Shown here: piece by piece, positions 1,062-56,531 of the stretch
Layout: the number at the start of each line of letters is the position of its first letter
Numbering within the stretch: the first letter of the stretch is position 1
IMG/VR virus record: IMGVR_UViG_3300031942_000002
Strand: one strand, 5' to 3'
Origin: an uncultured virus (IMG/VR IMGVR_UViG_3300031942_000002)
Taxonomy: Duplodnaviria > Heunggongvirae > Uroviricota > Caudoviricetes
Length of the DNA: 64,000 nt
Position numbers and translations under genes: made by a program
The notes under the pieces: generated by a model
Database searches by the model: none
What the model was told of the DNA's origin: nothing
The model's input: only the letters and a program-made list of their open reading frames with translations

Positions 1062-1079
1062 ACCAAGTGAGGAGACACC

Positions 1080-1235
1080 GTGGGCAGCATCCGTAAGCGA
1101 ATACAGGCTTATGAGCGTCAGGCAGAGATCAACTACATCCGCTGGATGTACCAGCAACCAGGACGGGCCGAAGAGGCTGCCAAACTGCAAAAAGCGTTGG
1201 GCATCACCGACAAGCAGCTCAACCGGGAGAAATGA
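1080..1235 (+). CDS. small hypothetical protein (51 aa, not in ORF track)
   Basis: GAGGAGACAC RBS then GTG; open to TGA; directly downstream of promoter motif. Confidence 0.6.
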   Translation: MGSIRKRIQAYERQAEINYIRWMYQQPGRAEEAAKLQKALGITDKQLNREK

Positions 1236-1319
1236 CACATGGCACGCATGACGGGGCGCGCTCACCGGAACCGGATCAGGTATGACCGCGAACAGCGGGT
1301 CGCGTACCACACGTAGGAA

Positions 1320-1338
1320 TATACCTGTAAGGTAAATC
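1320..1338 (+). promoter_or_regulatory. WWACC-N5-GGTAA promoter/operator motif
   Basis: TATACC-TGTAA-GGTAAATC, nearly identical with flanks to 9839-9868. Confidence 0.7.
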
Positions 1339-1367
1339 GTTCATCTCAGTGGAAGGGAGGTAACGAC

Positions 1368-2165
1368 ATGACAAGAATGAAGTACAACGGCAAGAGCTAC
1401 GAGCTTCACCTGTACGAGGACCCGCACCCCGGCATGGATCGCTGGGAGCGCGTGGCGAGCCCCTGTGTTCGCTGCGGTGGTTCGGGCATCTACAGCCACT
1501 ACCACGGCGTCTGCTACCGCTGCATGGGTGCCAAGCTGGACCCCGACGGCATCAGCGTCAACACCTTGCGCCGTAGGGCCAAGGAAGACGCATTGTGGGC
1601 CGAGTACGGCGACGAGCTGCGCGCCGAGCAGGCGTCAGCCGCCGAGGTCGCCAACGCCGCCAAGGCTGCGGCCGAGTTCGCTGCGGATTGGGACGAGGCG
1701 CACGCCGAGGCTGCCCGCCGGGCTGCTCTGGTCCAGGGCTTCCTGGGCAAGGTCGGTGAGAAGGTCACCAACATCCCGGTCAGCATTCGCTACGCCAAGT
1801 ACAACGAGGGCGCCTGGAACCGTTCCCCGTCGATGTTCATCATCGCGGAGAGTGACGCCGGTCAGGTCATCAAGATCTCGGGGTCCAGCCAGTCGCTGTT
1901 CGGCCTGGAACGCGGTGACCGGGCGGTCATCTTGAGCGCGAAGGTCAAGGACCACGGCGAATACCAGGGTCAGCAACAGACGATCCTGTGGCACGTCAAG
2001 GTCGACGACTTCGAGGCCCGCGCCGCGCAGGCGATGGCCTACGGGGTGACCGACGTCGAGGAGGCCGTCGAGCGGGCCCACGTCAAGGGCAACGAGCGCG
2101 AGCGCTTCGAGCGGTTCGTCGAGGCGCAGCGCGCGCAATACGAGAAGGAGCTGTTGGGCGCCTGA
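1368..2165 (+). CDS. hypothetical protein with CxxCxGxG...CxxCxG zinc finger and possible C-terminal OB-like domain
   Basis: CVRCGGSG...CYRCMG; GGAGG RBS; C-terminal beta-rich segment. Confidence 0.65.
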   Translation: MTRMKYNGKSYELHLYEDPHPGMDRWERVASPCVRCGGSGIYSHYHGVCYRCMGAKLDPDGISVNTLRRRAKEDALWAEYGDELRAEQASAAEVANAAKAAAEFAADWDEAHAEAARRAALVQGFLGKVGEKVTNIPVSIRYAKYNEGAWNRSPSMFIIAESDAGQVIKISGSSQSLFGLERGDRAVILSAKVKDHGEYQGQQQTILWHVKVDDFEARAAQAMAYGVTDVEEAVERAHVKGNERERFERFVEAQRAQYEKELLGA

Positions 2166-2213
2166 CACAGATCAGGCGCCTGCGGTGCAGATAAGGGTAG
2201 GGAGACACACACC

Positions 2214-2351
2214 ATGACCGCGATCGTGAGCATCGAATTCGCGGACGGCCGCACCGAAGTGTGGAACGTACGCGACACCCGCGCCGAGTTCATCCGGCAA
2301 GACCTGCTGGCCATTGACGGCGCACCCGACGTCGAGTCCGAGGCGCAATAA
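2214..2351 (+). CDS. small hypothetical protein (45 aa, not in ORF track)
   Basis: GGAGACACAC RBS element then ATG; followed by GGGCC-TTCG-GGCCC hairpin (2355-2368). Confidence 0.6.
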   Translation: MTAIVSIEFADGRTEVWNVRDTRAEFIRQDLLAIDGAPDVESEAQ

Positions 2352-2386
2352 CCCGGGCCTTCGGGCCCCCTAGAAGAGAGACACAC

Positions 2387-2614
2387 ATGAAGGTCACACG
2401 CAAGTCGGCATTCACCGGCGTCGAGCACACCATAGACCTGCCGACGGTCACCGAAGAGCGGTTGGCTCGGTGTTGGCGATTCAACCCCAATGGTAAGGGC
2501 AAGCATATCCAAGAGGTTTTCCCCGAGCTGACTGCTGATGAGCGCGAGTTCCTCATGACCGGGGTTACCGCTGAGGAGTGGGCCGAGGCTTTTCCCAAAG
2601 AGGACGAAGAATGA
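2387..2614 (+). CDS. hypothetical phage protein
   Basis: GAGACACAC before ATG; ATGA overlap with next gene. Confidence 0.75.
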   Translation: MKVTRKSAFTGVEHTIDLPTVTEERLARCWRFNPNGKGKHIQEVFPELTADEREFLMTGVTAEEWAEAFPKEDEE

Positions 2615-2958
2615 CCACAGCCGCCCAGCGTCATGGCTACGGCAAGAAGCATGATCACGGCTTCTTGGAGCCCCTCAACGAGAACGGGATGCCGTACTAC
2701 CGCTGCCCCACCAAGGACGAGATCACCATGTGGGCGCGCACCCACGGCACCCCCGAGTATCCCTACACCCGGCCGGTGTGGGCCGATCTCAGCGACGCCG
2801 ACCGACATGCCGTCGGTTGCTACGTGCGCTGGCATGATTTCATGACCCGCGCCAAGATCGCCCGATCGGTCGGCTGGCACGGGGAAGCAGCTTCACACCT
2901 GGCCAGTGCCGGGGCCCAGCGGCGGGCCTACGCCGCCTATCGAAGGAAGGGAAAGTAA
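2611..2958 (+). CDS. hypothetical protein
   Basis: ATGA and TAATG coupling on both sides. Confidence 0.65.
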   Translation: MTTAAQRHGYGKKHDHGFLEPLNENGMPYYRCPTKDEITMWARTHGTPEYPYTRPVWADLSDADRHAVGCYVRWHDFMTRAKIARSVGWHGEAASHLASAGAQRRAYAAYRRKGK

Positions 2959-3206
2959 TGCCATTTCACTCAGGTCTCATCGCGTCCAAAGTCAGCGAGG
3001 TCCGCTTCGGCGGTAAGTCGGTGGTGGTCAAGACCATGGGAAACGGCCAGATCCAGATGTCTGTCGACGAGGCACCCAGCGAGATCGGCAAGGAGTACGC
3101 CGAGATCGAGCTGGACGGTCAGGCCACCAGGGATCTGATCATGGCGTTGGTCCAGGCCCTGAGTGTCAGCGCCGAGATACGCGGCCGGAATGCACCTGAC
3201 GAGTAA
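2958..3206 (+). CDS. hypothetical protein
   Basis: Coupled start, GC3-rich codons. Confidence 0.65.
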   Translation: MPFHSGLIASKVSEVRFGGKSVVVKTMGNGQIQMSVDEAPSEIGKEYAEIELDGQATRDLIMALVQALSVSAEIRGRNAPDE

Positions 3207-3239
3207 ACTGTTCAACGAAGTGGAAGGAGACACACACAC

Positions 3240-3590: not shown

Positions 3591-3796
3591 TGCCTGATCA
3601 CCCCCAGGTCGACATCTGCGCGATCGAAGACTTCCTCTGGAAGTACTTCGGGGAGGCCCACGTCGTCTACAACGGCGGCGGGGATGCGTATCACATCCAG
3701 GATCTCGGTCCCGAGCTGGCCGACTTCCTGCACAAGCTCGGGGTCGACGTCGACTGGTCGGATCGATCCCGTTACCGGAAGGAGACACACGCATGA
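3590..3796 (+). CDS. hypothetical protein
   Basis: TGATG coupling. Confidence 0.6.
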   Translation: MPDHPQVDICAIEDFLWKYFGEAHVVYNGGGDAYHIQDLGPELADFLHKLGVDVDWSDRSRYRKETHA

Positions 3797-3984
3797 TCGG
3801 AGTCGAGGCCCGCAACCTCAGGCCGGGGGATGAGATTCTCGGTTTCGGGGTCGTCGAATCGGCCCGGTGCGACAGCGACGGCGACATCGCCGTCCGGTTC
3901 GTCGAGCCCAGCCATTTGGGAGCCCTGGTCTGGTTCGGCTACAGCGCCTGGTTGCGCATCGAGCGCAAGGAAGAGAAGAAATGA
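3793..3984 (+). CDS. hypothetical protein
   Basis: GGAGACACAC RBS; ATGA coupling. Confidence 0.65.
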   Translation: MIGVEARNLRPGDEILGFGVVESARCDSDGDIAVRFVEPSHLGALVWFGYSAWLRIERKEEKK

Positions 3985-3994
3985 GGAGACACAC

Positions 3995-4390: not shown

Positions 4391-4423
4391 GGAGCGCATG
4401 TGGGTAGCGCGGAGGGCCGAGCG

Positions 4424-4601: not shown

Positions 4602-4624
4602 AGAAGTGGAAGGAGGTGGTCGGA

Positions 4625-4777: not shown

Positions 4778-4785
4778 GGCTCTAC

Positions 4786-6794: not shown

Positions 6795-8716
6795 GTCACT
6801 CGTTTCCAAAAATCACGGTCATCTCCGAAAAGTAAATAATCAGCGTTCGATATCTCGTCTCGGGTGGCGATCTCAGGTAACGAGACGACTTCACTCGTGC
6901 CCAGCGTGGCCTCGGCCAGCTGGCGCCGATACTCGCAGATCCCGGCGATGCGCTCCTCGATCGAGTTCTCGGTCACATAGATGTACGCGGTCAGCCCGGC
7001 CAGCTGGGAGTCGGTGCGGTGGATCCGGTTGATCCGCTGCTGGAAATCGTCGTAGCTGTACGGGCATTCGTACTGGATGCAGTACTTGGCCTCCTGCATG
7101 TTGAGGCCATACGCCCCGGCGTCGCTGGACAGGAACAACGTGATCTCGGCATCGGCCTTGAAACAGTCCTGGGCCCGCTGGGACTCCTTGGCGGTCTGGC
7201 CGGTGCCGTAGTGCACCACATGCTTCACCTTGCGCTTGTCCAGCTCACGACTCAAAATATGCAAGCCCAAATTGGTCCATTTGGTGAAAGCGACGCATTT
7301 ATCTCCGGCGTCGGCAATCGATTCCACCTGGTCGAGGAAGTACTCCATCTTCGCGGAGTTGGCGCTGGTGATCAGCCGGGGGTATTCCTCCATCAGCACC
7401 CGCGCCAGCGGTGAGATGGAGTGCGCCAACGCTTCCGGCGTGTTGCACACGTACCGCTGCAGCAGCGCGTAGGACGTCAACGACTCCCCCTCACGCTTGG
7501 CGATGCGGGCCAGGTACTCGATCTCGTCGATCAGCTGGCGGTCCTCGGGACTCATCTGGATCGGGATGAACTCCACTTGCAGCGGCGGGAAGTATTCGCG
7601 CACACCGGGATCGCCTTTACGCGCGTTCTGCACCCGGTCGGCCACCCGGTGGCGCACCTCATGCAACGCGGCCAAATCCCAGTCGTAGTCGGTGACGGTG
7701 AACGACCCGCCGTGGCGGGTGGTGCGCTGGTAGGTGCGCTTCTTCGGGTTGCCCCAGTTGTCGCGTTCCAGGTAGCGCTCCTCGAAGTCCGCCCGGCTGC
7801 CCAGCGGGTTGTCCCGAGCTTGACTCAAGGCGAACAGCGAGCGGTAGCGTAGCGGATTGGAGCCCACAATGGAGGCAGTCATCGGCCAGATGGTGGCCCG
7901 GCAGCCCTTGATCAGCTGATCGAGCGCCTTGCGGGCCTGGGTCTTGGTCTCGGCGGTAAGCACCTTCTGCACCTCGTCGAGCACGAACAGCACACGCTTT
8001 CCGGCGGTCAGCTCGGACAGTTCCTCGAAGTCGAAGCGCGGTTTGTCGTAGTTGACCACGAACACGTCGTGCTCGCTGGCGTAGAGCTTGCGGCGCCGGT
8101 CTTTAGTCCCGTCCACCACAACGGCTTTCAGCTCGGTGGTGTCGGCGAAGAACGCCCGCAGGTTGTCTTTGTGGCGCATCAGGGTGAAAGCTAGCACCAC
8201 GTCCACAAGGCCCCTGTTGGCCAGCTCCTGAGCCCCTGCGCAGGCGAACAGGCTCTTCCCGGCACCGGCACACCACCCGGGCACCGTGAGGCGCTCAGAG
8301 GCCTTCTGAGCCTCGTTCCGTTCCAGCGCCCGCTGAATCCCGAAGGTCTGATAGGGCCGCAGCTGCCCGTGGTGCGGGCAGGTGAAGCCCTGCACGTCCA
8401 GCGGCGCCGCCCAGCGCTCGAAGTCGGCTAGGATCGGATCCGCCGACGGGTCATACACCAGCAGCCAGCTGTCGTCGAGCAGCTGGCGGATGAAATGGCG
8501 CAGGTTGTGGTGCTCGTTGAGCACCAGGAACCGGCTGATCCAGTTCTCCTCCAAGCCGTAGCGCTGGAAGAAGCCCTGCCGGTCCCCGTCGAACGGTTCG
8601 AAACGCAGGCAGCCCGAGTAGGCGGTGGACTCGCTGACCAACACGACGGTGTCCAGGTCGACCTCGGGGTCGCTGGCCAAAAGTTCGATGGTCGACTCAA
8701 CCGTCGCGTGTGTCAC
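6791..8716 (-). CDS. SNF2-family (SF2) helicase/ATPase
   Basis: LRPYQ, GAGKS, DEVQ, TAS, SAKM, AGAYGLNMQ, QRINRIHR; start placed at GTG 8716, 6 nt after TACAAT and downstream of a terminator. Confidence 0.9.
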   Translation of the reverse strand: MTHATVESTIELLASDPEVDLDTVVLVSESTAYSGCLRFEPFDGDRQGFFQRYGLEENWISRFLVLNEHHNLRHFIRQLLDDSWLLVYDPSADPILADFERWAAPLDVQGFTCPHHGQLRPYQTFGIQRALERNEAQKASERLTVPGWCAGAGKSLFACAGAQELANRGLVDVVLAFTLMRHKDNLRAFFADTTELKAVVVDGTKDRRRKLYASEHDVFVVNYDKPRFDFEELSELTAGKRVLFVLDEVQKVLTAETKTQARKALDQLIKGCRATIWPMTASIVGSNPLRYRSLFALSQARDNPLGSRADFEERYLERDNWGNPKKRTYQRTTRHGGSFTVTDYDWDLAALHEVRHRVADRVQNARKGDPGVREYFPPLQVEFIPIQMSPEDRQLIDEIEYLARIAKREGESLTSYALLQRYVCNTPEALAHSISPLARVLMEEYPRLITSANSAKMEYFLDQVESIADAGDKCVAFTKWTNLGLHILSRELDKRKVKHVVHYGTGQTAKESQRAQDCFKADAEITLFLSSDAGAYGLNMQEAKYCIQYECPYSYDDFQQRINRIHRTDSQLAGLTAYIYVTENSIEERIAGICEYRRQLAEATLGTSEVVSLPEIATRDEISNADYLLFGDDRDFWKRVT

Positions 8717-8749
8717 CAGCTCATTGTAGGAAAATTGGACGACTTGTGG

Positions 8750-9861: not shown

Positions 9862-9893
9862 CGTTCATGAGATTGTAAGGAAGGGAGACACAC

Positions 9894-12526: not shown

Positions 12527-12651
12527 GCCTGGCATTAGAGCAGTATTATAGGTAAATTAGAAGATATACACGACAGGAGACACACACCAATGCACGAAAC
12601 GCAGGTAACCGACGAGCGCGGTGGGCCTCAGACGGTGAAGCGAGAGGCGTC

Positions 12652-12852
12652 GTGAACGACCAGATCCTGCACCTGCACTATTACGCGGCGCCTCGGGCGC
12701 GAGCACTGCCACCGGCGCGTCGCAAACCAGGTGTGGCCGAGGAAATTTTCACCAACTTCACTCGGGGCTACCTGCTGGGATGCGCGGTGTTCGGCACCTT
12801 CATCATGGTGGGCTTGTTCCTATTTGTCGTCTTGGCGTTCCTCTTCGCGTGA
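12652..12852 (+). CDS. small membrane protein
   Basis: C-terminal hydrophobic helix. Confidence 0.6.
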   Translation: MNDQILHLHYYAAPRARALPPARRKPGVAEEIFTNFTRGYLLGCAVFGTFIMVGLFLFVVLAFLFA

Positions 12853-13380: not shown

Positions 13381-13706
13381 GCAGCCATGGTAAGGAGCAG
13401 CGCTCCAAACGGTCCCGGCGCAGCCATTCCGGCATGTCCAGAATCCTCGACATAGGCCCCTGCGAGCCGTCGGGCGGCAAGCTGGGCTACCGGACGCATG
13501 CCGATGCGAAAGAGGCGCTGAAACGCATTCAGCGGGCGGTGGGCCAGAGGTGCGAGCAGCGGGTGTACAAGTGCGAGCACGCCGAGCACTATCACCTGAC
13601 GTCCAAGCCGTACATGCCGGAGAAAAACTTCCCGCACGTCTCCATTCCGACGTCGCGCCCGGGCATCGAGCGCGTCCTAGAGGCTTGCCGCCGTGAAGAC
13701 GCGTGA
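13377..13706 (+). CDS. small putative metal-binding protein
   Basis: C..GK.GY....DA...RVYKC....HYHLTS pattern common in phages. Confidence 0.6.
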   Translation: MSSHGKEQRSKRSRRSHSGMSRILDIGPCEPSGGKLGYRTHADAKEALKRIQRAVGQRCEQRVYKCEHAEHYHLTSKPYMPEKNFPHVSIPTSRPGIERVLEACRREDA

Positions 13707-14070
13707 CACCGACAGCTGGCAGGGGCGCCGGGCGGCGCTGGCTGGCGGCGGCGAGATCAGCGTGGCTTTCCTGACGTTCTTGGAGGACTGGGTGGAGGGC
13801 GCCGAGGGGCAGCTGGTTCTGCACGGCAGGCTGCTCACCCCCGGCGAGGCATTGCGGCGCTCGGTGCAGTTCGTCGAGGCCCGGCAGGGCCGGTTTCCGG
13901 CGTATCTGCTGGCTCAGATGCTGGCGGTGCTGGCCGAACACTGGGTCTACGGCCAGGAGATGATGGAGGATCTTACGCCGGTCGAACGCCGACTGGTGGA
14001 GGACGTGACGCTGCTCAAGATCGACGAGCTGCAGCGCCAAGCAGAGGAGACACACAATGGAAGTCCTTGA
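13693..14070 (+). CDS. hypothetical protein
   Basis: GC3 bias, operon position. Confidence 0.6.
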   Translation: MKTRDTDSWQGRRAALAGGGEISVAFLTFLEDWVEGAEGQLVLHGRLLTPGEALRRSVQFVEARQGRFPAYLLAQMLAVLAEHWVYGQEMMEDLTPVERRLVEDVTLLKIDELQRQAEETHNGSP

Positions 14071-14544: not shown

Positions 14545-14607
14545 ATCGGTCCTTTGGGCATGTCTTGGGCCTACGTTAGACTAAAGTTGTAGGAAAAGGA
14601 GACACAC

Positions 14608-20088: not shown

Positions 20089-20325
20089 ATGGATCCCGTG
20101 GAACACACCCTGTCTGACGGTTACAAGGTCCACTATCACCCCGACACCGGCCGGGTGGTCCTGCAGCCGGGTCAGAGCCGCCTGCGCGAGCGTTTGACTG
20201 AGGCCCATGGTGAGAACCTCAAAGCGCATCAAGAGCTGGCAGAACGCCACAGGGGGCTGGTAAAGCGCCGCCGGGAGAGTCTGGCCGCTCACCCGATCGT
20301 TCCGCACAGTAAAAGGGTGGTTTGA
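20089..20325 (+). CDS. hypothetical protein
   Basis: Fills gap between primase and J-domain genes, coupled. Confidence 0.55.
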   Translation: MDPVEHTLSDGYKVHYHPDTGRVVLQPGQSRLRERLTEAHGENLKAHQELAERHRGLVKRRRESLAAHPIVPHSKRVV

Positions 20326-21350
20326 TGGGCCGGATCCCCCACATCCACGAGATTCTGGGGACCGATGACGGCGATCGCTTTCTGCGCCACCCCAGCAGCG
20401 CCAACGACCTGTACCGCTCCCTGGTGGGTCACCCCGGCCGCGACAGCATCCAGGCGGCCCTCGGTATTGGTCCCGAGCCCGAGGCGCCGTGGGACGTCTA
20501 CGGGCCCGACTTCATCGAGCCAGAGAACCTGCCCGCCACCCCGGTCTGGGTGGCCAGTCAGCGCGCGGAAGAATTCTTCAGCTCGCGCGACCACTGTCCC
20601 GGCGTGGGTTACCCCAGCTGCGCGCGGGCGCTGATGCGCATCCCCCGCAAGATCGGCTTGGATGCCAACGGTTACTACCGGCTGCTGGGCGTGCGCCCCG
20701 ATGCCACCGAGGCCGAGATCCGCAAGGCGCTGGCCACCAAGTACCGGCGCACCCACCCCGACACCGGCTGGGCGCCCGACACCGAGGAGTTCATGTACCT
20801 GCGCGAGATCGCCAGGGTGCTGCTCAACCCCCAGCGCCGGGAGCGTTACGACAACCTGCGCTCGGGCGAGAAGTGGGTGGACAGCCGGATCCGCAAGAAG
20901 ATCGAGGCCGACAACCCGATCGTGATGTCGATGAACGCCGAGGACCTCAGCCCGTTCTTCAAGCGCGTCGAGCAGCCCGACGAGGAGATCATCAACGATC
21001 TGGGGCGCACCGACGGCCGGATAGGCGACGGTGGGGTCTTTGCCCAGGACCGCTCCCAGGCTATGCGCGCTGCCGACACCGCGTCGGGCAACGACCACTG
21101 GGATTGGTTCTCCGAGGGCGAGCACTACACCGACCGGCTTGTCGCCCAGCTGTGGTATTTCCACCTTATGGCGCTGGCTCCGATGTTCCGCTACACCCGA
21201 GCGATCAGAGTGCAGCTGACCAATGACCGCAGGCCCACGTGGTCGGACATGGGCAACATCGTGCGCATCCCCAGATTCTGGAAACCCACGTCCGGAAACT
21301 CTTTCGCACTGTTTACCTGCGTGGTAGCGTCGATCGCACCGGGAAATTGA
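20325..21350 (+). CDS. J-domain (DnaJ-like) protein
   Basis: YYRLLGV...ATEAEIRKA...HPD...F...VLLNP.RR..YD, internal J domain. Confidence 0.85.
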   Translation: MGRIPHIHEILGTDDGDRFLRHPSSANDLYRSLVGHPGRDSIQAALGIGPEPEAPWDVYGPDFIEPENLPATPVWVASQRAEEFFSSRDHCPGVGYPSCARALMRIPRKIGLDANGYYRLLGVRPDATEAEIRKALATKYRRTHPDTGWAPDTEEFMYLREIARVLLNPQRRERYDNLRSGEKWVDSRIRKKIEADNPIVMSMNAEDLSPFFKRVEQPDEEIINDLGRTDGRIGDGGVFAQDRSQAMRAADTASGNDHWDWFSEGEHYTDRLVAQLWYFHLMALAPMFRYTRAIRVQLTNDRRPTWSDMGNIVRIPRFWKPTSGNSFALFTCVVASIAPGN

Positions 21351-29506: not shown

Positions 29507-29983
29507 ATGCGCCGCTTACCCGATGATCCCACCAAGCGCAGGCTACAGATATTCAAGCGGTGCTTTCAACATCTCGAACATTTCAAGGCTCTTATCGAAT
29601 CCGGCGAAATGGAAATGCCGGGCATCATCGTGGTCGTCGATACCGTCCTGGGGGTGGAGGAGATCTACCTGCCGGATCTGATGACCGGCATCCTGTCGTT
29701 GCCTGATCGCCAGCGGGAAGCCTTCGAGCTGATCTGCCTGCGCGGGTTCACCGAGGGCGCGGCCACCGACATCATGCTGCCGGAGAGCCAGTGGAGCACC
29801 CCCATACAGCAGTACGCCGACACCGCGTTGGCACGCATGGTCAAGGCCTATGACGAAAAGCAGGCCGGGACCTGGGTACCAAGGATCTACGTCAAGCGCT
29901 CGAAGTGCACCCCTGAGACGGCCGACACCGCCACCTCATTGCCCGCGTTCGAGGACGAACGGGAGCAGCTCATATCTGCCTGA
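29507..29983 (+). CDS. sigma-70 region-4-like transcription factor
   Basis: LPDRQREAFELICLRGFTE..A...M resembles sigma region 4 HTH; no region 2 recognised. Confidence 0.55.
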   Translation: MRRLPDDPTKRRLQIFKRCFQHLEHFKALIESGEMEMPGIIVVVDTVLGVEEIYLPDLMTGILSLPDRQREAFELICLRGFTEGAATDIMLPESQWSTPIQQYADTALARMVKAYDEKQAGTWVPRIYVKRSKCTPETADTATSLPAFEDEREQLISA

Positions 29984-32152: not shown

Positions 32153-32323
32153 GTTGTCACTGCAGGCGCACCGACGGCTGGCATTACCGGCCGTGCCGCT
32201 TCCTGTTGCTGGCTGTGGCCTGCGAGCACCGCGTCGACCCGGCTGAAGGTGTGTCCATTTACCGGCCGAGGACTATAGTGAAATCTTCGCCCAACTTTCC
32301 CCCAACGCTTCGAGGAGACACAC

Positions 32324-33611: not shown

Positions 33612-34037
33612 TCAGCGTGAGCCATTGAGTAGGACTTCGGCGTCATGGGCCGAGCCCACCCGGTAGCGTCCACGGCTGACCAACCACACCATATCGCGCT
33701 CGATCAGCCTGTTGATGCGCCAGGTTGCACCGGCGTTGGTGAGGTCGAACGCCCCCGCGATTTCTCGGGCGGTGATTCCCTCCGGCCGGTCCGCAGCCGC
33801 CATCCAGGCCCAAGTCTCATCGAGGGGCTTGGAGATCGGACGCTCGGGGCGCGGCGGCGCCAGTTTCCGGCGGCGACGCTTCTTCGGTGCAGGCTTGGCC
33901 ACCCGCTTGGATTCGATCGCCTTGGGCGCGGGGACCGCGTGGCCGCTCAGCAGCTCGCGCACGAAGGAGGCCGCGCTGCTGTTGTCTTCGATCTCGGCGG
34001 TGATGAGTCCGGTCGCGGGGTTGATCTCGATCTTCAT
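33612..34037 (-). CDS. winged-helix DNA-binding protein
   Basis: GITAREIAGAFDLT...ATWRINRLIERDMV...RGRY. Confidence 0.65.
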   Translation of the reverse strand: MKIEINPATGLITAEIEDNSSAASFVRELLSGHAVPAPKAIESKRVAKPAPKKRRRRKLAPPRPERPISKPLDETWAWMAAADRPEGITAREIAGAFDLTNAGATWRINRLIERDMVWLVSRGRYRVGSAHDAEVLLNGSR

Positions 34038-34408: not shown

Positions 34409-34453
34409 CAGGGGGCCTTGGTCATGGTTATGTGTCTCTTCCAATCTTGCTCT

Positions 34454-34472
34454 AATGTACCTACAGAGTATA
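34454..34472 (-). promoter_or_regulatory. minus-strand copy of promoter/operator motif
   Basis: TATACT-CTGTA-GGTACATT on minus strand, upstream of GAGACACAT and the leftward operon. Confidence 0.6.
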
Positions 34473-34525
34473 ACGTCGTTTTTGGGGCCGTCACACCGCA
34501 CATCTTCAGCTGTTACTGTTGGCCT

Positions 34526-34560
34526 AGGCGTCCGAGTACTGTGTGTCTCCTCGGACGCCT
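34526..34560. repeat. perfect 11-bp hairpin with GAGACACAC complement in the loop
   Basis: AGGCGTCCGAG-TACTGTGTGTCTC-CTCGGACGCCT. Confidence 0.85.
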
Positions 34561-34760: not shown

Positions 34761-34795
34761 CCCAGAAAGCCCCCCGCCGCGTTAGGGTTGGGTAC

Positions 34796-35236
34796 GTGAC
34801 ACGACCCGAGTCTGTCCGCCGGTTGGGTAGCGAACCCAATCCCGCGCCGGATCCCCTGCCAGATACGGAACCATATCCTTCCGAAATCCCGAAGATCCGC
34901 CGCGCATTCCGCGACCTGCGGGCCCGCTTCGAGAACACTCGCTTCGACGATCGCACCATGGACGAGTTCCACGGCGCCGCTGTCGATTTGTTCGGTGAGG
35001 CGGGCTTTCTGGTGAGCGTCACCTGGGACGAGGCCCGCAACCTCGATGGCAGCTCCACCAACATGTACCTGCCCACCGTGACCATCTGCGCGCGCACCGA
35101 TCCCGAAAGCGAAACCGACCACGATAGATACCGCCATGAGGTGGTGACCGGCCAGGCCGACGGCATCGCCGGTTACGTGCGCCCGGGCAGTGGTGGCCAG
35201 CTCTACGAAGACCCGATTCGCAAAGTGATCACATGA
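34796..35236 (+). CDS. hypothetical protein
   Basis: TAGGGT 7 nt upstream of GTG, possibly leaderless. Confidence 0.65.
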   Translation: MTRPESVRRLGSEPNPAPDPLPDTEPYPSEIPKIRRAFRDLRARFENTRFDDRTMDEFHGAAVDLFGEAGFLVSVTWDEARNLDGSSTNMYLPTVTICARTDPESETDHDRYRHEVVTGQADGIAGYVRPGSGGQLYEDPIRKVIT

Positions 35237-40394: not shown

Positions 40395-40703
40395 CAGCAG
40401 ACACACACAAGGAGACACACAACATGGCAGTAAAACTGAAACCACCCACGCTCGAAGAGCTGCGTAAAGGGGTGGCGTGATGAGGGTCAAGATCAGCTAT
40501 AGCGTGGACGTCGACCTAGACGTCTACCGGGCCCGCCACCATGCCGACACCCCCTCCCTGCCCGCCACCGAGATCGCCCACGACGTCCGCTGGCTGGCGG
40601 CGACGGTCTTCGCCCACGCCATGGAAAAGGCCCAGCCCAGCTCGTATGTAACCGGCTATCACGTGCAGGAATGGGATGACGAGTGCGACGAGGTGGTGGC
40701 GTG

Positions 40704-42366: not shown

Positions 42367-42410
42367 GTTCCAGAAGGTGACACACCCGAGAACTACCCAA
42401 GGAGACACAC

Positions 42411-47877: not shown

Positions 47878-50800
47878 GCGTCACCATCAACGAGCTGACC
47901 ATCACCGTGCCCGGCAACGTGGTGAAGAACAACGACAAGGACGGCAACTCGATGCTGCGGATGAACCAGGAGCAGCTGCAGTCCATCGTCAACGACGCGG
48001 CCTCCCCCCAGGTCGGTATCACCGCGACCCACGTCAGCATTGCCTCGTTGACCGAGAAGGCAATGGCCAACAGTGGCTGACGACTTGCCGCCGCTGACCG
48101 ACGCCGAGTTCATCTTGGGTGAGCAGGTGGCGGGACGGCCCACCACCAAGGAGTGCCTCAAAGAGATGCGGCTGGCCTCCTCCCGGCTGCGCCCGGTCCC
48201 GCTGACCGATGAGCAGCTGCACGCGGCCGGGATCGACGCGCTGCACTTCCTGGCCACCTGTCATGTGGCCGGGGCCAAGTTCCTGGTGCACTTCCCGGCC
48301 GACCCGGTGGCCTATCCCGTCCGCTTCCAGGTGCCCGGCCTGATCGAGTTCGACGATGGCTGACACCCCGACGTCGGAGATCACCTTCGTGAAGCTGGCG
48401 CGGCGCGAGGTGGAGAACACCGTGGGTCTCTGGCACAGGCTGAAGGTCAGCGGGCCCGCCGAGGCCGAGGACCACCTGGCCAACCTCTACCAGCTGGCCG
48501 ACAAACTGGTGTCTACTCAGATCATGCTGCTGCGTGCAATCGAGGAGGCTGCCGGTGCCCGCCCCAGACCCGATGGACCTGATCATCGCCAACGCCCGCG
48601 AAGAGGCCGATTCGGTTATCGCTTACTGGACCGCTCATCTGGAAAATCTGACTAGCGCCTATGCGAAGTACAAGGACCGCATCCCGCGTGACAACCTGAT
48701 CTTCAACACCGTCAAGACGCTGATGGAAAGCGACAACGACCGGGAGGCGCTGTGCTACCAGGTGATGATAGCCGTGGACATGATGGCGAGAATGCGATGA
48801 GGTCGGGCTGGATGGAGATCTACCCCGATCACCACCTGCACACCCCGTGCTCAATCTGTGGCTGGCCGACTCGCTACAAGCAGTGGCCGCTACGCTCCCA
48901 CCTGCAAGGATGCCCGAAGGTGAAAGTATGAGATACGTCATCGAAGGCGGGGAAGGTGTGGACTTCGTCGCCTACCGGGCCATCCCGCTGTTCGAGAAGG
49001 CCGGGAACGGGCACACCCCGATGGAGGCGCTGCACGCGCTGATGCGCCTCATCGCCGAAGCCGAGCAGCCCTATCCCGAGCCGCCGGTCAATCTGCTCGA
49101 CAAGAAAGAACCCATCAATGCTTGAGCCGGGAGAGGTGGTTGTCCTGGACGGGGATGACACCAAGCGCTACACCATCACCGAGGCCCGCGTCGGTGGGGA
49201 TTTGAACCGCCGGGTGCACGAGGTGCATAAAGTGACCTATCGAGCAGCTGGGCTGGACGAGGACATCGACGCCAGCAGGATCACCGGCGTGGTGGGCTTC
49301 TCATGAGTGATCCGCAGGTGGAGTTCGAGGACACCGGCGACCGGCTGGCGCTGATCGCGGACGTGGAGAACGCGTTGCGCCGCGCGATGCGGGTGCAGAT
49401 CATCGCCAACCATCGGCGCCTCTACGGGGAGCTGGTCCTAGAAGACTCGGCCGTGGCGATCATCCTCGACCAGCTGGATCCCAGCGAGCTGGCCCGGGTC
49501 GCGGTCAACCAGGTGTTCATGACGCTGCTCAAAGACATGACGGCGGCCAGCCACGCGGCGCGCAGCGTGTTCACCATGACGCCCGAAGACCTGGATAAAG
49601 CCGCCGAAACGGTGCAGGTACGCATTCCCGAGGAATAGGAGACACGCCCGATGACTAAGATCTGCCCGACAGGGAGGTAGAGCATGGTTGAGCCCGTCTT
49701 CCTCGACGTCGAGCTGGCTGACTACGACGGCGGGTCATGCTGCAGCAAAACTTCGGGCTGTGACAAGTGTCGGCAAACGCCCAGCTGGACAGTTACCCAC
49801 CGGGTAACGCCGCAGGTCGGTGGGGCCCGGGTCAGCTACCGAGCTGATCGTGGCCTTCCTGGCCTGGGCCGCCGAGCACGAGAAGGACTTCGGCGGCCAG
49901 ATCCAGGTGGCTCAGGTCAATGAGTTTCAGGCCCGCAATTACGCCAAGGAGTTCTTCATGAGTACCGAGGGCAAGGAGTGGCTGACATGAAGATCGGCGA
50001 TATGCAGTGCCCCTGGCATCCCGGCATGACGCTGTTTGAGTGCCAGGCCGACCACGAGCGTGTCCGTGATCATGCCCGCTACACCCCCGAGGAGTTGGAC
50101 CGTGAGCATCAGCCGGTGATCGCGGCCACCCCCGAGGACGTGGCCGAGGCCGAGGCCCGTTACGGCAAAACTATTGACGAGTTGGCTAAGGAAGCCGAAC
50201 GCGGCTACCAGGGCGCGTCGCTGTACGACACGACGGGCTTTGACCCGAGTGATCTGACCTACGACAAGGAGCCCATCGACCGGATTCCGTGGTACGACAA
50301 GGAGCCCGTCGACTGGGCCAAACAGTTCAACAAGCCGCTGGTCTGGATGGGCTATCCGGCCAAAGAAGTCCGCTGCGCCCAGTGTCAGCGGTACCTGCCC
50401 GTCACCCTCCCGGCCGGGGTGACGTCGATGGTCATCTACTGCGAGTCCTGTCGTCATATGAAGGACACAGCCCATGGCGGGTAAGCCCATCACCGAGGAG
50501 GAGTGGCTTCGGAGATTCTGGTCACGAGAAGGAGGCATGATGGACGCTGCTGATGAACTGGCGGCGATGATTCTTGCGCGGCTCGATGTGCTGCGTGAGA
50601 TCAACCGAACCACCTTCAACTCCGCCCATCCGACCAACTGCGGCCCGATTGCCCGCTGGATCGAGGACCTGCAGGCAACGGTCACCACGTTCAACCTGAA
50701 AGCCATCCGATCCACAACGGTGGACTCCCGCGAGCAGCACACGCTGCCACCGGAGACCGACCGGCACGGGGCGCCGAGGCGATGAGCGGCCCGGTCTCGG

Positions 50801-52677: not shown

Positions 52678-52713
52678 TTAACCTACTGGGTAAGTTTTTG
52701 CTACAATGGGCCC
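52678..52713 (+). promoter_or_regulatory. palindrome plus extended -10 of a leaderless gene
   Basis: TTAACC-TACTG-GGTAAG then TGCTACAAT-6 nt-ATG. Confidence 0.65.
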
Positions 52714-52950
52714 ATGACACACATTCATATCCCCTTGCGCGTCTCGGCGCTGCTGGCCTTATTGGCAGCGGTGGCTTCGGGCGTGATCCTGGGCGTCCAG
52801 CTGGCGCCGCCCGCCAACGCGTGCGACCCCGGCAACTGGTATGACCCCACCCACCAGGTCTGCGCCCCGTACCCGCCCGCCTACCCGCCGACCAACTACC
52901 CGGCGCCGCCCAACAACCCCTACCCGCCCAGTCAGTGGGGGCAGCAATGA
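52714..52950 (+). CDS. small secreted Pro-rich protein
   Basis: Signal peptide ending ANA, CDPGNWYDP...C, Pro/Tyr tail. Confidence 0.7.
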   Translation: MTHIHIPLRVSALLALLAAVASGVILGVQLAPPANACDPGNWYDPTHQVCAPYPPAYPPTNYPAPPNNPYPPSQWGQQ

Positions 52951-53403: not shown

Positions 53404-54390
53404 ATGAGTGCTCCGATGCCGGTGTTGCGCGCGCTGATGGGCGGCGCCAAGATCTGGCCGCTGGCTCGCGCGTTGTACGAGGCTACCGAGGCCGACGGCT
53501 TCGGTGGGTATACCACGCCGTGGGGGCTTTACCAGGACGAGTCGATCGCGCTGAAAGAAGACCTCCGGTTGAGCTTTCTGCGCGAAATCACCGCCTGCGT
53601 GCCGTTCGACGTCCAGCTGGCCCACGACCTTTTCTGGGACCGCTTCGATAGCATCGCCTGCCGCCGTGAGGAGAACTTCGGGTCGCTGCGCATGCCCTAC
53701 CCGCACATGTGGATGGAGTGGGATCCCGCGCACCCGTCCGACAACAACATCTTCCAGGGGATGATGCTGACCGAGTGCGAGCCCGACGAACACGCCCCGG
53801 CATCCGGCAGGAAGATGGCGGCAAGCCGCATCCAGATGACGCTGTTCATGCACCCGGTCCAGCACCCCGACGTGGTGCTGTTCGACGAGATCCTGCACGA
53901 CATGTACTTGGACGAGAACGGCCGCTACACCTACAGCGCGCAGATCGAAGTGCCCGACAACCTGGCCGACCGGCCGGATCTGGTCACGACGGCCCAGGAA
54001 CTGATGCGCACTGCGGAGTTCACCGCCAGCCAGGCGCTGCACCTGATGAACTGCCGCAACGTGACCACCGAGAAGGCGGGGGTGGTGCCGATGCGCCGCA
54101 GTGGTCGGGCCAAGCGGACGGGCGCCAAGCCGGTGGAATACCACCACATCAAGCTGCCCGGCATGCCCAAGCTGACCGGGATCAGTCGCCGCGACCGGGA
54201 GGCGTATCAGGCCGCGATGCGGCTGCACAAGGTGAAAGGCCACTACAAACACTTCGGGCCCGAGTTCGGCACCGGGCTGCTGTTCGGGAGGCTTGCTGGG
54301 ACATTCTGGTGGGGCTGGCAGGAGCGTGGCGACATCAACGAGGGTGTCATCTTCTCCGACTACGAGCTGGCACGGGGAGATGAGTCATGA
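53404..54390 (+). CDS. HxVxGHxK-motif protein, paralog 1
   Basis: PYPHMWMEW, LMNCRNV, HKVKGHYK, GTFWWGWQERG, SDYE. Confidence 0.8.
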   Translation: MSAPMPVLRALMGGAKIWPLARALYEATEADGFGGYTTPWGLYQDESIALKEDLRLSFLREITACVPFDVQLAHDLFWDRFDSIACRREENFGSLRMPYPHMWMEWDPAHPSDNNIFQGMMLTECEPDEHAPASGRKMAASRIQMTLFMHPVQHPDVVLFDEILHDMYLDENGRYTYSAQIEVPDNLADRPDLVTTAQELMRTAEFTASQALHLMNCRNVTTEKAGVVPMRRSGRAKRTGAKPVEYHHIKLPGMPKLTGISRRDREAYQAAMRLHKVKGHYKHFGPEFGTGLLFGRLAGTFWWGWQERGDINEGVIFSDYELARGDES

Positions 54391-54707
54391 TGCAGGGAGA
54401 CATTCGCTACGAGACCGACGAGACCCATTGGGAGATCTATTGGGACGGCGACATCATGATCGACTGCCCGGTGGTGTACTTTCACGCCACCTTCCTCGCT
54501 GACCCGCCGCCCTGGTGGACGGTGATCTTCCCCGAGCGACCGGCCGACGCACAGGAGGGCGACGAGGTCGATGTTACCGGCACGCTGCTCAAGCTGCCGC
54601 CCGCTCCCGATCCTGATCCTGACTACGTCTTTACCGGGCGTGTATGGCGGCTGACCGGGCGCATGGACCCCATCTACGGCGGATACGAAGGGAGGTGGCC
54701 GGATTGA
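54387..54707 (+). CDS. hypothetical protein
   Basis: Coupled between the two paralogs. Confidence 0.65.
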   Translation: MMQGDIRYETDETHWEIYWDGDIMIDCPVVYFHATFLADPPPWWTVIFPERPADAQEGDEVDVTGTLLKLPPAPDPDPDYVFTGRVWRLTGRMDPIYGGYEGRWPD

Positions 54708-55747
54708 GCGCCGGTAAATTCCCGATCGCCAACCTGCTCAAGTCGGGCGCCCCCATCCGCTCGCTGGATGGCCACGGGCTGGACATGGTCAACCAGGACA
54801 ACGTGCGCACCCACCTGCTGGGCGATCGGGTGGCGTTCTTCGAGCTGTCGGTGGCCGCCGACCTGTACTGGCTGGGCAAGCAGGACTACTACCGGCTGGA
54901 CTCCGACTTCGGGCCGATGCGCCCGCCATACCCCGCCATGTGGTGCGAGTGGGAAGTCCCCGACAAGGTGCTGATCCACGGCAAGTGGTGGGACATGGAA
55001 GCCAGGGCCCGGTTCGGCGCCCTGGTGATCAGTGACACCATCAACACCGCCGACCTCGACGAGGAGCAGCTGCGCGGCTCGATCACCGGCTTCGCCCAGA
55101 TGTATCCCAAGTACTTCAAGCGCAACCCCGAGACCAACCTGGATGACATGATCCGCGATGCGGATGCGTTCAAGGCACTGCGCGACGAGTTGCGCGCCGA
55201 TGCCCGCGAGATGATCGCCGTGCAGGTGATCATGTACATCCTCGACGCGAATGACGGCGTGGTCTTTCTGCCCTACGCCCGCCAGATCGGGCTGAACCCC
55301 GACGGACTGTTCAATCACTTCATCTCCGACATGGTCCCGACGTCCCAGGTGCCCGAGGAGACCCTGCACGCCGCCAAGGAGATCGGGGACGCCAACCCGG
55401 TGTGGCTGGCGCTGAATTTGATCAACTGTCGCAACGTGACCACTCGCGAGCAGGGCAGCGTCTTTGCGCGCAGCACCCGGGAGAAGCGCCAGCGGGTGCC
55501 GATCACCCGCTATCACACCATCGAGCTGCCCGGTACCGCCGGTCGCGAACTGCGCCACGGTCGGCGCCGCCGGTCCCCGGCCGAGGAGTACGTGATGAGC
55601 CAGCACCGGGTGCGCGGGCATTTCAAGACGTTCACCGCCGAGGCGCCGCTGCTGGGCAAGCACGTCGGCACCTATTGGTGGGGCTGGCAGGTGCGGGGCT
55701 CCAAGGACGCCGGTGAGGTCATCAGCGACTACGAGATCGGGGCATGA
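54704..55747 (+). CDS. HxVxGHxK-motif protein, paralog 2
   Basis: PYPAMWCEW, LINCRNV, HRVRGHFK, GTYWWGWQVRG, SDYE; GGAGG RBS, TTGA overlap. Confidence 0.8.
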   Translation: MSAGKFPIANLLKSGAPIRSLDGHGLDMVNQDNVRTHLLGDRVAFFELSVAADLYWLGKQDYYRLDSDFGPMRPPYPAMWCEWEVPDKVLIHGKWWDMEARARFGALVISDTINTADLDEEQLRGSITGFAQMYPKYFKRNPETNLDDMIRDADAFKALRDELRADAREMIAVQVIMYILDANDGVVFLPYARQIGLNPDGLFNHFISDMVPTSQVPEETLHAAKEIGDANPVWLALNLINCRNVTTREQGSVFARSTREKRQRVPITRYHTIELPGTAGRELRHGRRRRSPAEEYVMSQHRVRGHFKTFTAEAPLLGKHVGTYWWGWQVRGSKDAGEVISDYEIGA

Positions 55748-56067
55748 TGAGTGACCATTATGTGCGTCATTTGATTCGATCGGGTGACCACGTTCGCACC
55801 GAGTACGAGTGCCGTGCCCCAGAGGGGGCGGCGTGCCGGTTGGCCTGCGATAGCTGTATCCGCGCCCAGTACGAGCAGTGTGAGTGTGGCAGTCGGGACG
55901 GCTGGACCGATCAAGGCCAATGCATGCAGATGCCCTGGCTGACCGAGGACGCCCCCGAGGAGTGCTACGACGGCGACGAGCAGCCGGTGCGCGGACCTGG
56001 TTGGCAAGCGATCATCTTGGAATGGAACGGCGACAACTACAGCTGGCATTACGAAGAGGTGGCCTGA
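55744..56067 (+). CDS. Cys-rich hypothetical protein
   Basis: C.APEGA.CR..C..C...CEC. Confidence 0.65.
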   Translation: MMSDHYVRHLIRSGDHVRTEYECRAPEGAACRLACDSCIRAQYEQCECGSRDGWTDQGQCMQMPWLTEDAPEECYDGDEQPVRGPGWQAIILEWNGDNYSWHYEEVA

Positions 56068-56183
56068 TGCAGCTGATTCCGACCTACATGAGTAAGGACG
56101 AGTTCCTGGTGATTGGTGGGGGAATGGGACGAACCCGGTGTGTCGCTTCCCTAATCTTCCTCTAACTTTGCTACAATGAGGTC

Positions 56184-56531
56184 ATGACACACACCGAACA
56201 GCTCCGCGAACCGGAGCATCTGACCGAAGACGAAATCAAAGAGATTGCCCTGAAACTGGTGGGGGGCAGTCTGTTCGTCGCCACTCAGGCGCCGCCGGAG
56301 ATGATGACCTCCATCTTTCTGCCGGTGGCCCTGGACGGGCTGGCGGGCATTGACGTCGACAAGATCGGCAACATCGTCGAAGACCTGAGCAAGGCCGGGC
56401 ATTGGGCGATCAACGGCTACCCGACGTTCCTCAGCTGCCAGGTGATCCACGTCGAGGACTGGATCACTATCGTGGAGAAGGCCGAGGCCGCGCGCGCCGC
56501 CGTGCTCGATGCGGTCGAAGGTCAGTCGTGA
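56184..56531 (+). CDS. hypothetical protein, leaderless
   Basis: TGCTACAAT-6 nt-ATGACACAC. Confidence 0.75.
   Translation: MTHTEQLREPEHLTEDEIKEIALKLVGGSLFVATQAPPEMMTSIFLPVALDGLAGIDVDKIGNIVEDLSKAGHWAINGYPTFLSCQVIHVEDWITIVEKAEAARAAVLDAVEGQS

Follow-up and report, generated by a model that had tools for sequence, protein, structure and literature searches.

A CA-repeat start-associated sequence precedes non-structural genes of an uncultured actinophage-like virus, and its CA repeat recurs after leaderless-type start codons

We describe a short repeat, GGAGACACAC, that stands just before translation starts in a 64,000-nucleotide (nt) stretch of an uncultured tailed virus from soil (IMG/VR record IMGVR_UViG_3300031942_000002), hereafter the window. 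The repeat, which we call the tag, provides the Shine-Dalgarno (SD) sequence of the genes it precedes and continues into a CA repeat, and the same CA repeat recurs immediately after the start codon of genes predicted to be leaderless. We interpret the tag, with moderate confidence, as an RNA-level start-associated sequence that would serve as a translational enhancer and as the mark of a gene class, and that a phage RNA might possibly use as an address. Elements of this kind are already known. New are the tag sequence, its post-start form on leaderless genes and a hairpin with a complementary loop, none of which was found described in the literature searched.

The window corresponds, in reverse complement, to bases 8162-72161 of one virus record of 125,723 bp (G000), and has a G+C content of 62-65%. 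Large actinobacteriophages are indicated by distant DNA and protein matches, the nearest named phage being Mycobacterium phage Phrappuccino (DnaE 47% identical). The phage belongs to a myovirus-like actinophage lineage that is distant kin of Phrappuccino. A near-identity search of the phage collection with 20 kb of the window returned no matches. Genes were called with a simple codon-usage caller that chose starts by generic SD words and ignored the spacer sequence; 193 genes were called in the genome, 181 of them on the window plus strand. Replication genes occupy 1-40 kb of the window (two helicases, DnaC/DnaB/primase, SSB, DnaE and a UvsX-like recombinase), and 42-64 kb holds numerous small open reading frames (ORFs) without assigned function. 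To the left of the window lies the virion arm of 53.5 kb, with major head, tail sheath, tape-measure, baseplate and minor-tail genes.

Three further sequences served for comparison. G001 is the one relative found by a DnaE search of IMG/VR (143,610 bp; DnaE 67% identical), L159 is a third relative from a metagenome scan (7.6 kb; proteins 80% identical), and L158 is a metagenome contig of 161,668 bp that is identical to the window across the 13 kb compared. Searches for related loci found none with the 247-amino-acid (aa) protein encoded at a tagged start (DUF7242) and G001 alone with the 334-aa protein in viral contigs. The best match of the tagged helicase in a protein search was 37%, and the helicase therefore has no close relatives there.

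Twelve exact copies of the tag occur in the window, 11 on the plus strand and one on the minus strand, and none of 100 dinucleotide-preserving shuffles reached that number (mean 0.22, maximum 2). Across the whole genome there are 12 plus-strand copies and 1 minus-strand copy. A first-pass annotation of the window had reported the 11 plus-strand copies as lying 0-4 nt before an ATG, and every one was recovered in that position (Table 1). Its five variant sites were found as well, the one at 49638 being doubtful. Absent from that annotation was the twelfth exact copy (minus strand, 34541-34550), which lies in a hairpin loop and not at a start. Two further start-linked copies stand just past the right end of the window, at window-scale positions 65288 and 66051, and the start-linked total of the genome is 18, namely the 12 exact plus-strand 10-mers and 6 variants. 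All 18 are in the non-structural part and none is in the virion arm, in agreement with the first-pass proposal that the element marks a gene class.

The positional enrichment at starts that the same proposal entailed was confirmed genome-wide. The core word GAGACAC lies 0-8 nt before called starts in 14 of its 30 occurrences on both strands, against 0.21 expected, and in G001 it lies 0-8 nt before predicted starts in 20 of 28, against 0.17 expected. The other occurrences in our genome are 4 before the ATGs of mini-ORFs, 1 in the hairpin and 11 that are scattered; the scattered words lack the flanking G and AC, and have either no start near them or short non-coding frames only. The bare word GACACAC is modestly enriched (25 observed, 11.5 expected).

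Table 1. Tag copies, leaderless-type starts and hairpin features in the window (window positions; gap, nucleotides between the tag and the start codon)
Feature	Position	Strand	Gap (nt)	Start codon and context
Exact tag GGAGACACAC	2201..2210	+	3	ATG 2214 (45-aa ORF)
Exact tag	3226..3235	+	4 (ACAC)	ATG 3240 (116 aa); TAAACT promoter-like box ~16 nt upstream
Exact tag	3781..3790	+	2	ATG 3793 (63 aa), within operon
Exact tag	3985..3994	+	0	ATG 3995 (131 aa, Pfam DUF7715)
Exact tag	9884..9893	+	0	ATG 9894 (492-aa DNA helicase); tag also in G001 ortholog
Exact tag	12576..12585	+	4	ATG 12590, mini-ORF of 21 codons; stop overlaps GTG 12652 (GTGA)
Exact tag	14046..14055	+	1	ATG 14057 (65 aa); G001 ortholog GAGACAC-ATG
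Exact tag	14598..14607	+	0	ATG 14608 (247 aa, DUF7242); tag also in G001 ortholog
Exact tag	32314..32323	+	0	ATG 32324 (334 aa, phrog_1362)
Exact tag	40411..40420	+	3	ATG 40424, mini-ORF of 18 codons; stop overlaps ATG 40480 (TGATG)
Exact tag	42401..42410	+	0	ATG 42411 (47 aa); GGTAAATT box 34 nt upstream
Variant GGAGACACC	1071..1079	+	0	GTG 1080 (51 aa); GGTAAACT box 9 nt upstream
Variant GAGACACAC	2378..2386	+	0	ATG 2387 (75 aa)
Variant GGAGACACAA	38656..38665	+	1 (A)	ATG 38667 (272 aa)
Doubtful variant GGAGACACGC	49638..49647	+	3 (CCG)	ATG 49651, 9 codons only; then GGGAGG and ATG 49684
Variant GAGACAC	34432..34438	-	6 (ATAACC)	ATG 34425, 5-codon mini-ORF MTKAP; stop overlaps ATG 34408 (TGATG)
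Leaderless-type start, SNF2-like helicase	8708..8728	-		TACAAT 8728-8723, N6, GTG 8716, ACACAC 8713-8708
Leaderless-type start	52702..52722	+		TGC-TACAAT, N6, ATG 52714, ACACAC (78 aa)
Leaderless-type start	56172..56192	+		TGC-TACAAT, N6, ATG 56184, ACACAC (115 aa)
Related leaderless-type start	34783..34804	+		TAGGGT, N7, GTG 34796, ACA CGA (146 aa); G001 TAGGGT-N7-GTG-GCA-CAC
Conserved hairpin	34526..34560	+		11-bp perfect stem AGGCGTCCGAG / CTCGGACGCCT, 13-nt loop TACTGTGTGTCTC
Extended -10-like box TGtTACTGT	34511..34519	+		6 nt before first hairpin base

The tag supplies the SD at every start-linked copy, its GGAG standing 5-11 nt from the start codon. The element is tied to translation starts, as had been proposed. 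The bases ahead of this GGAG are A/G-rich in tagged genes, and the start codon is ATG in 11 of the 12, compared with 129 of 193 genes overall. What follows the GGAG is specific. In 77 genes a GGAG lies 4-12 nt ahead of the start; the four bases behind it read ACAC in 12 of these genes, and the runner-up word occurs 3 times. When the next 6 nt of a GGAG-SD gene are purely A/C, they are exactly ACACAC in 10 of 12 cases here and in 16 of 18 in G001. This preference rules out the idea that any A/C-rich spacer suffices, and with it the explanation of the tag as a strong SD followed by a merely A/C-rich spacer. The distance of the tag is fixed to the SD and not to the start codon; 0-4 extra bases are tolerated between tag and start, and the ACACAC is therefore tied to the ribosome-anchoring element. 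If the host has a 16S rRNA 3' end of the common type, ACACAC after GGAG presumably cannot extend the pairing with the anti-SD.

Tagged start regions are also predicted to be unusually open. In a 90-nt context, opening positions -16 to +4 costs 5.25 kcal/mol in 14 tagged genes of this genome and 9.93 kcal/mol in 177 others (Mann-Whitney p = 9e-6), and the value for the 64 other genes with a GGAG-type SD is again 9.93 kcal/mol. The corresponding energies in G001 are 5.19 and 9.98 kcal/mol (p = 5e-8). By these predictions, a tract made only of A and C is an effective way to keep a start open in a genome of 63% G+C.

The same positions bear on the possibility that the tag is read as DNA. Cluster A stoperators, asymmetric 13-bp sites that recur in many copies, are bound by a repressor on double-stranded DNA and have no fixed relation to an SD or start. 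The tag resembles them in its many asymmetric copies, in their one orientation relative to transcription and in their location in short intergenic gaps. A phage protein bound to double-stranded GGAGACACAC might likewise block or modulate transcription, with the reverse copy, which is single and lies beside divergent promoters, as an autoregulatory operator within a palindrome; helix-turn-helix proteins are encoded nearby at 33615-34037 (weak HTH_24 match) and 57793-58158 (HTH_3). However, the tag is itself the SD, and at each start-linked copy its GGAG is the only one at proper spacing, so that its position is not independent of the SD and start as that of a stoperator is. At the leaderless starts ACACAC falls within the coding sequence, directly behind the start codon, and the compensatory stem changes and conserved loop of the hairpin described below indicate a folded strand and not two half-sites. 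Pope et al. (PMC3203893) set the start-associated sequences of other phages against stoperators on the same positional ground. We give a DNA-level site little credence.

The first-pass annotation had further reported that three genes with the arrangement TACAAT-N6-start begin with RTG-ACA-CAC. These are the only TACAAT-N5-8-RTG sites with an ORF of at least 40 aa in the genome, and all three have N6 spacing. They share TTTnCTACAATGRG upstream, and two have a TGN extension. A TANNNT box placed for transcription to begin at the RTG, with no usable SD, is present at 52714, at 56184 and at 8716 on the minus strand, and the three genes are accordingly predicted to be leaderless. The SNF2 start was set at 8716 and not at the called 8773 because the alignment with its G001 ortholog begins at residue 20 (q20-s1). 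In mycobacteria, transcription of leaderless genes begins at the ATG or GTG itself, 7-12 bp downstream of a TANNNT -10 box, and a TGN extension marks the stronger promoters (Cortes et al. 2013, PMC3898074). The three phage sites fit this rule of box and spacing, two of them with the extension TGC, and differ in the conserved ACA-CAC after the start, which occurs in the phage and is not part of the mycobacterial architecture as described.

The three proteins have only Met-Thr-His in common. The codon ACA makes up 0.36% of codons and in-frame ACA-CAC occurs in 9 of 38,571 codon pairs; at codons 2-3, about 0.05 occurrences would be expected among 193 genes. The SNF2 ortholog in G001 begins TATAAT-N6-GTG-ACA-CAC-ACC, and leaderless-type starts in that genome read GTG-ACA-CAC, ATG-ACA-AAC-ACA, GTG-GCA-CAC and ATG-ACT-GAG-ACA-CAC-ACA. 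In the window, the leaderless-type start at 34796 (GTG-ACA-CGA) is CA-rich as well, but two others are not (ATG-CCG at 60905 and ATG-AAG at minus 61534). The claim that GACACAC is rebuilt across leaderless starts thus holds in part: ACACAC is common to both architectures, and the G is not informative. The shared G is forced by GGAG in one case and by RTG in the other, and therefore the common part is ACACAC. Statistics support a functional identity of the leaderless RTG-ACA-CAC with the leadered tag; the mechanism that would unite them we infer.

A 9-nt inverted repeat, CGGTGTGTC at 56137-56145 and GACACACCG at 56186-56194 (plus strand), flanks the TACAAT promoter of the leaderless gene at 56184, and could hide the start of that gene in read-through RNA. 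A more general version, in which the anti-motif GTGTGTC (32249-32255 and 56138-56144) masks read-through transcripts, was rejected: the plus-strand word is no commoner than chance, and the copy ending at 32255 is absent from L159.

Conservation in relatives was found for four orthologous leadered genes and for the leaderless SNF2 start. G001 carries 16 plus-strand and 1 minus-strand exact 10-mers, and its GAGACAC words number 23 forward and 5 reverse, as opposed to 2 and 0 for the control word read backwards. Among 78 reciprocal-best ortholog pairs between the two genomes, the tag is present in both members at 4 (helicase 9894, 14057, 14608 and 32324), only in our genome at 2, only in G001 at 5 (one of them partial and paralog-like) and in neither at 67. 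The SNF2 start keeps ACA-CAC in both genomes. At the 32324 ortholog, G001 has GGAGACACACCACC-GTG, L159 has GGAGACACGC-ATG and Phrappuccino gp134, a weak case, has GGAGACACCAC-GTG; the 43 kb of Phrappuccino examined contain no exact copy and six GGAGACAC words, one of them before this ortholog. L159 has the exact 10-mer and the same MTKAP mini-ORF at the site of the minus-strand variant at 34432-34438. By these comparisons the tag is kept by selection, yet also gained and lost.

Alternatively, the tag could be a strong ribosome-binding site that this lineage prefers, which has no dedicated function and has spread by recombination with promoter-leader cassettes and small genes, the hairpin copy and the leaderless ACACAC being coincidental. 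Many tagged genes are indeed small accessory ORFs without a G001 ortholog, the promoters and leaders are similar at several sites (for example 1368 and 9894), and a scan of viral contigs for the 14-mer AGGAGACACACATG found at least 118 stretches in unrelated contigs, all but one of the 80 listed having a single match. Yet 12-16 exact copies are kept in both genomes although their proteins are only 40-70% identical, the operon-internal sites at 3781, 3985 and 14046 have no such cassette, ACA CAC stands at three of three leaderless sites where chance would give the 0.05 noted above, and the loop core of the hairpin is kept while its stem covaries. We regard an element without dedicated function as improbable.

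The minus-strand copy of the tag lies within the loop of the conserved hairpin, whose plus-strand loop reads UACUGUGUGUCUC, the complement of GAGACACACA. In a 101-nt context the z-score of the fold is -4.3 for the plus strand and -2.3 for the minus strand. The genome has 14 perfect hairpins of at least 10 bp, and their loops together make up 0.15% of it. L159 has the same loop, with stem pair 8 changed from C:G to G:C. G001 has a 10-bp stem in which pairs 6, 8 and 10 are altered on both sides, and its 25-nt loop retains GTGTGTGTCTCC. Taking the window, L159 and G001 together, both bases are changed in three of the 11 stem pairs, no pair among the first 10 is broken and the loop core GTGTGTCTCC is kept, a pattern to be read as thin support, coming as it does from three sequences. 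Stem pairs were tabulated by script; MAFFT alignments of the three hairpins misplaced the 5' arm in G001.

A TGnTANNNT box, by the definition of the TGN-extended TANNNT box in PMC3898074, stands 5-6 nt before the stem in the window, in L159 (TGtTAAGGT-N6) and in G001 (TGcTAAGGT-N5), where the flanks of the hairpin are otherwise unrelated to those of the window. This arrangement suggests a plus-strand RNA that begins with the hairpin. Downstream is a 58-aa ORF with its own SD in the window and L159, and in G001 the leaderless-type start of a 146-aa homolog. Predicted duplexes between loop and target range from -12.0 to -16.2 kcal/mol for tagged start regions and are about -12.6 kcal/mol for leaderless starts. 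The loop thus has the property of an RNA directed against ribosome-binding sites, in that a predicted single-stranded segment is complementary to several such regions, and compensatory changes in the stem accompany it. In G001 the loop is complementary to GAAGGAGACACACAC, matching the upstream consensus of that genome, and the mean predicted duplex is -26.7 versus -15.4 kcal/mol. Searches of the window, the right end of the Cluster K mycobacteriophage Anaya and the G001 locus against Rfam at gathering thresholds returned no matches. A search for further relatives of the hairpin (pattern AGGCG..GTGTGTCTCC..CGCCT) gave 4 loci, one of which was G001; the other three have neither hairpin nor tags and were therefore taken as chance.

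We propose the following mechanism. In leadered genes the GGAG, usually after A/G-rich bases, would act as the SD, and the (AC)3-5 tract behind it as a sequence-specific, structure-free enhancer of the CA/ACA type. The SD and (AC)n together would make an open, strong ribosome-loading site on about 18 non-structural (early, replication and accessory) genes, which would form one translational class. In leaderless genes transcription would begin at the start codon and leave no space upstream, so that the ACACAC would be placed right after the 5'-terminal RTG. The loop of the hairpin RNA, GUGUGUCUC(C), could pair with GGAGACACA(C)A and so cover the SD and spacer as far as the first start-codon base, and by 8 bp with the leaderless GACACACA; such pairing could damp or time the translation of the whole tagged class. 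We infer the enhancement, the plus-strand transcription of the hairpin and the pairing in vivo. That the hairpin RNA reads the tag as an antisense regulator is plausible, though well short of an even chance, and is argued for by the complementarity, the covariation across three genomes and the predicted promoter.

Pushed further, this would amount to a one-to-many switch, in which the tag boosts about 18 early and replication messages and an RNA with the 5' loop GUGUGUCUCC hides the SD together with the spacer and the first start-codon base, so that leadered and leaderless messages are lowered together. We offer the switch tentatively, as something that may be so but that we would not bet on; it would be the function long sought for the start-associated sequences discussed below.

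If the antisense part were the whole story, the tag would be an address only, the pairing target of a one-to-many antisense RNA, with ACACAC giving specificity against host and late-gene SDs and no enhancer activity. The identity of the 10-mer at 11 starts and the preference for (AC)3 over other A/C spacers are better explained by pairing than by openness. The complementary loop is conserved, its stem covaries and it has a -10 box of its own, and in G001 the complementarity extends over GAAGGAGACACACAC with the stronger duplexes given above. On the other hand, duplex energies in our genome overlap those of untagged genes, leaderless starts pair by just 8 bp, and published CA/ACA tracts enhance translation alone (PMC9031893, PMC3879156). 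An address without enhancer activity seems to us unlikely, though deserving of attention.

The first pass had left the binding partner as either RNA or protein. A candidate RNA has now been found, namely the conserved hairpin with its complementary loop; for a protein, no recognizable RNA-binding family was seen among the window proteins scanned. T4 RegA, which acts on early mRNAs, is the model for such a protein. A phage or host RNA-binding protein that recognizes GGAGACACAC in mRNA, and represses or activates the class with the hairpin as an unrelated or secondary site, would account for sequence-specific conservation that reaches beyond the SD and for the confinement of the element to one gene class; many genes of the phage, including most of its small proteins, are without known function, and either an RNA or a protein binder was proposed for the Cluster K sequences (Pope et al., PMC3203893). 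Against it, scans of window proteins with Pfam (65 proteins) and PHROGs (108 proteins) showed no S1, KH, CsrA, Hfq or RegA-type family, and on the plus strand, to which nearly all genes belong, the hairpin displays the complement of the motif, which a motif-reading protein would not bind. We consider a protein operator unlikely.

An RNase site is very improbable. MazF of E. coli is ACA-specific and has been proposed to create leaderless mRNAs, a model that is disputed. ACACAC does offer two overlapping ACA triplets exactly between SD and AUG, where a MazF-like endoribonuclease of phage or host might trim leaders or destroy the class. However, the Pfam and PHROGs scans showed no MazF-like nuclease among the window proteins, and cutting after the start codon would destroy leaderless mRNAs.

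The interpretation of the tag as an enhancer and class mark with a possible RNA partner can be set beside known systems. As the first pass had stated, start-associated sequences (SAS) of another sequence exist in mycobacteriophages. The Cluster K SAS has the consensus GGGATAGGAGCCC and occurs in 11-19 copies, 3-7 bp before starts that are mostly ATG, in one orientation and in the non-structural half only; K1 phages have a single reverse copy that is not start-linked (Pope et al. 2011, PMC3203893). Its function was given as unknown, a protein or RNA binder being proposed, and its role was still called unknown in 2024-2025 (PMC11373665, PMC12699233). The phage tag is likewise a short asymmetric repeat with the SD core GGAG, a few nt before mostly-ATG starts and in one orientation. 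Its copy number falls in the same range (12 exact copies and 6 variants; 16 in G001), it is found in the non-structural part only, and it too has a single reverse copy away from starts, which in Anaya lies within a hairpin loop as it does here. In the Cluster K SAS, conservation goes past the bases that pair with 16S rRNA; in the phage tag GGAG is followed by an invariant ACACAC, which would be non-pairing with a 16S 3' end of the common type.

The two differ in sequence, GGAG(AC)3 as against GGGATAGGAGCCC, and the tag is therefore an element of the same kind but not a member of the Cluster K sequence family. The conserved extension, here a simple CA repeat, lies on the 3' side of the SD, no 17-bp inverted repeats of the extended-SAS type were seen, and the element is carried by a 126-kb myovirus-like phage, as against a temperate siphovirus of 60 kb. 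For Cluster K, no counterpart behind leaderless start codons has been described. A literature search for the literal GGAGACACAC gave, among the matches listed, only primers or unrelated sequences.

Anaya has one reverse SAS, which forms the 10-nt loop of a long hairpin on the plus strand, in the gap between gp96 and gp97. An alignment of 11 Cluster K phages showed a non-coding block of three hairpins near the right genome end (L163:9800-9950, that is, Anaya 59800-59950), in which K1-like members have the reverse SAS as the loop of the middle hairpin and 5 pairs of the reverse-SAS hairpin have changes on both sides. No mention of this block was found in the available text of the SAS papers; that of PMC12699233 contains none of a hairpin, antisense or opposite orientation, and small RNA (sRNA) is mentioned 0 times in that of PMC11373665. 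The reverse SAS of K1 phages is thus also in a conserved hairpin loop, and therefore the switch, if true, would be the SAS function as well. The Cluster K parallel is real but not universal.

A second precedent concerns the CA repeat itself. Leadered and leaderless mRNAs alike are reported to be translated more strongly when CA repeats follow the start (PMC9031893, citing Martin-Farmer and Janssen 1999). Near the SD, ACA motifs act as enhancers, and the GU-rich sRNA GcvB silences them (PMC3879156; Yang, Figueroa-Bossi and Bossi 2014). Both findings uphold the first-pass statement that CA-rich tracts near starts can enhance translation. The phage has such CA multimers or ACA triplets beside the SD, as (AC)3-5 after GGAG, or after the start, at three of three TACAAT-N6 sites. 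The published enhancers reportedly need no strict spacing, as the 0-4 nt of play and the post-start placement would have it here. There the evidence comes from reporters in E. coli and Salmonella, and here from sequence and predicted openness; the phage also differs in reusing one fixed sequence across a whole gene class. The hairpin resembles GcvB-type sRNAs in presenting a GU-rich single-stranded segment against CA-rich elements at many ribosome-binding sites, where silencing would mask the enhancer (PMC3879156), and differs in being a candidate phage 5' hairpin loop of 13-25 nt without an Rfam match, whereas GcvB is a chromosomal, Hfq-dependent sRNA.

Several observations weigh against this interpretation. 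The turnover of the tag, with 2 orthologs tagged only in our genome and 5 only in G001, means that it is not essential to any particular gene, and four of the tagged starts open ORFs of only 5-21 codons. Openness follows almost automatically from a spacer made of A and C, and therefore does not separate an enhancer from an address. Enhancement by CA repeats has been shown in enterobacteria and is not known to have been tested in actinobacteria. Untagged start regions average -8.1 kcal/mol in pairing with the loop, but the best of them reaches -13.8 kcal/mol, and this overlap means that energy alone does not define the target set. The hairpin is without a U-tract and could serve another purpose, such as 5' stabilization or a protein site. 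In Cluster K the loop is an exact anti-SAS in 5 of the 11 phages, while 3 have other C/U-rich loops and 3 have none, and therefore an antisense partner is not a universal companion of such tags.

The SAS puzzle has been open since 2011, and the phage tag presents a simpler case of it, a plain CA repeat with a published enhancer precedent. A single conserved hairpin with the exact complement makes that old question testable. Because the same repeat follows leaderless start codons, it links the two initiation routes used by actinobacteria. Should the tag prove portable, it would be a compact expression part for high-GC hosts.

Four tagged ATGs open mini-ORFs of 21, 18, 9 and 5 codons (12590-12655, 40424-40480, 49651-49680 and minus 34425-34408, respectively), whose stops overlap or abut the start of the next gene as GTGA, TGATG, TAG-AGC-ATG and TGATG. 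The arrangement suggests leader peptides driven by the tag and coupled translationally. The tag at 40411..40420 has a second CA tract, GACACACACAA, on its immediate upstream side. Many tagged SDs are preceded at 9-34 nt by a promoter-like box, GGTAAAyT, often after ATATACctgta, which is present in G001 too and may represent a phage-specific promoter class. It is found at 954, 1054, ~1338, ~3203, 4594, 9854, 12551, 14575, 42359 and 60891 on the plus strand and at 34461 on the minus strand; the box at 60891 reads TAAACT-N6-ATG 60905 and has leaderless geometry.

Other features of the window and its record were noted in passing. L158 exceeds the 125,723-bp record by 36 kb, and the record may be incomplete or L158 may contain a repeat or concatemer. 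A tRNA scan of the window gave 0 genes. The remaining observations are on the plus strand. A 158-aa protein at 29507-29980 shares 53% identity with Phrappuccino gp130, whose annotation is that of a putative sigma-70 factor; the window protein has a region-4-like stretch and no Pfam match. At 13693-14067 a 125-aa protein matches Pfam Tad4, a type I Thoeris inhibitor (E = 1.6e-15), and is a candidate anti-defence gene. The adjoining genes at 53416-54387 and 54704-55744 both match phrog_20769 (E = 1e-44 and 1e-70) and are likely tandem paralogs. Finally, a 341-aa protein with a DnaJ domain (20325-21347; Pfam E = 5e-12) adjoins the primase, as in Cluster C mycobacteriophages.

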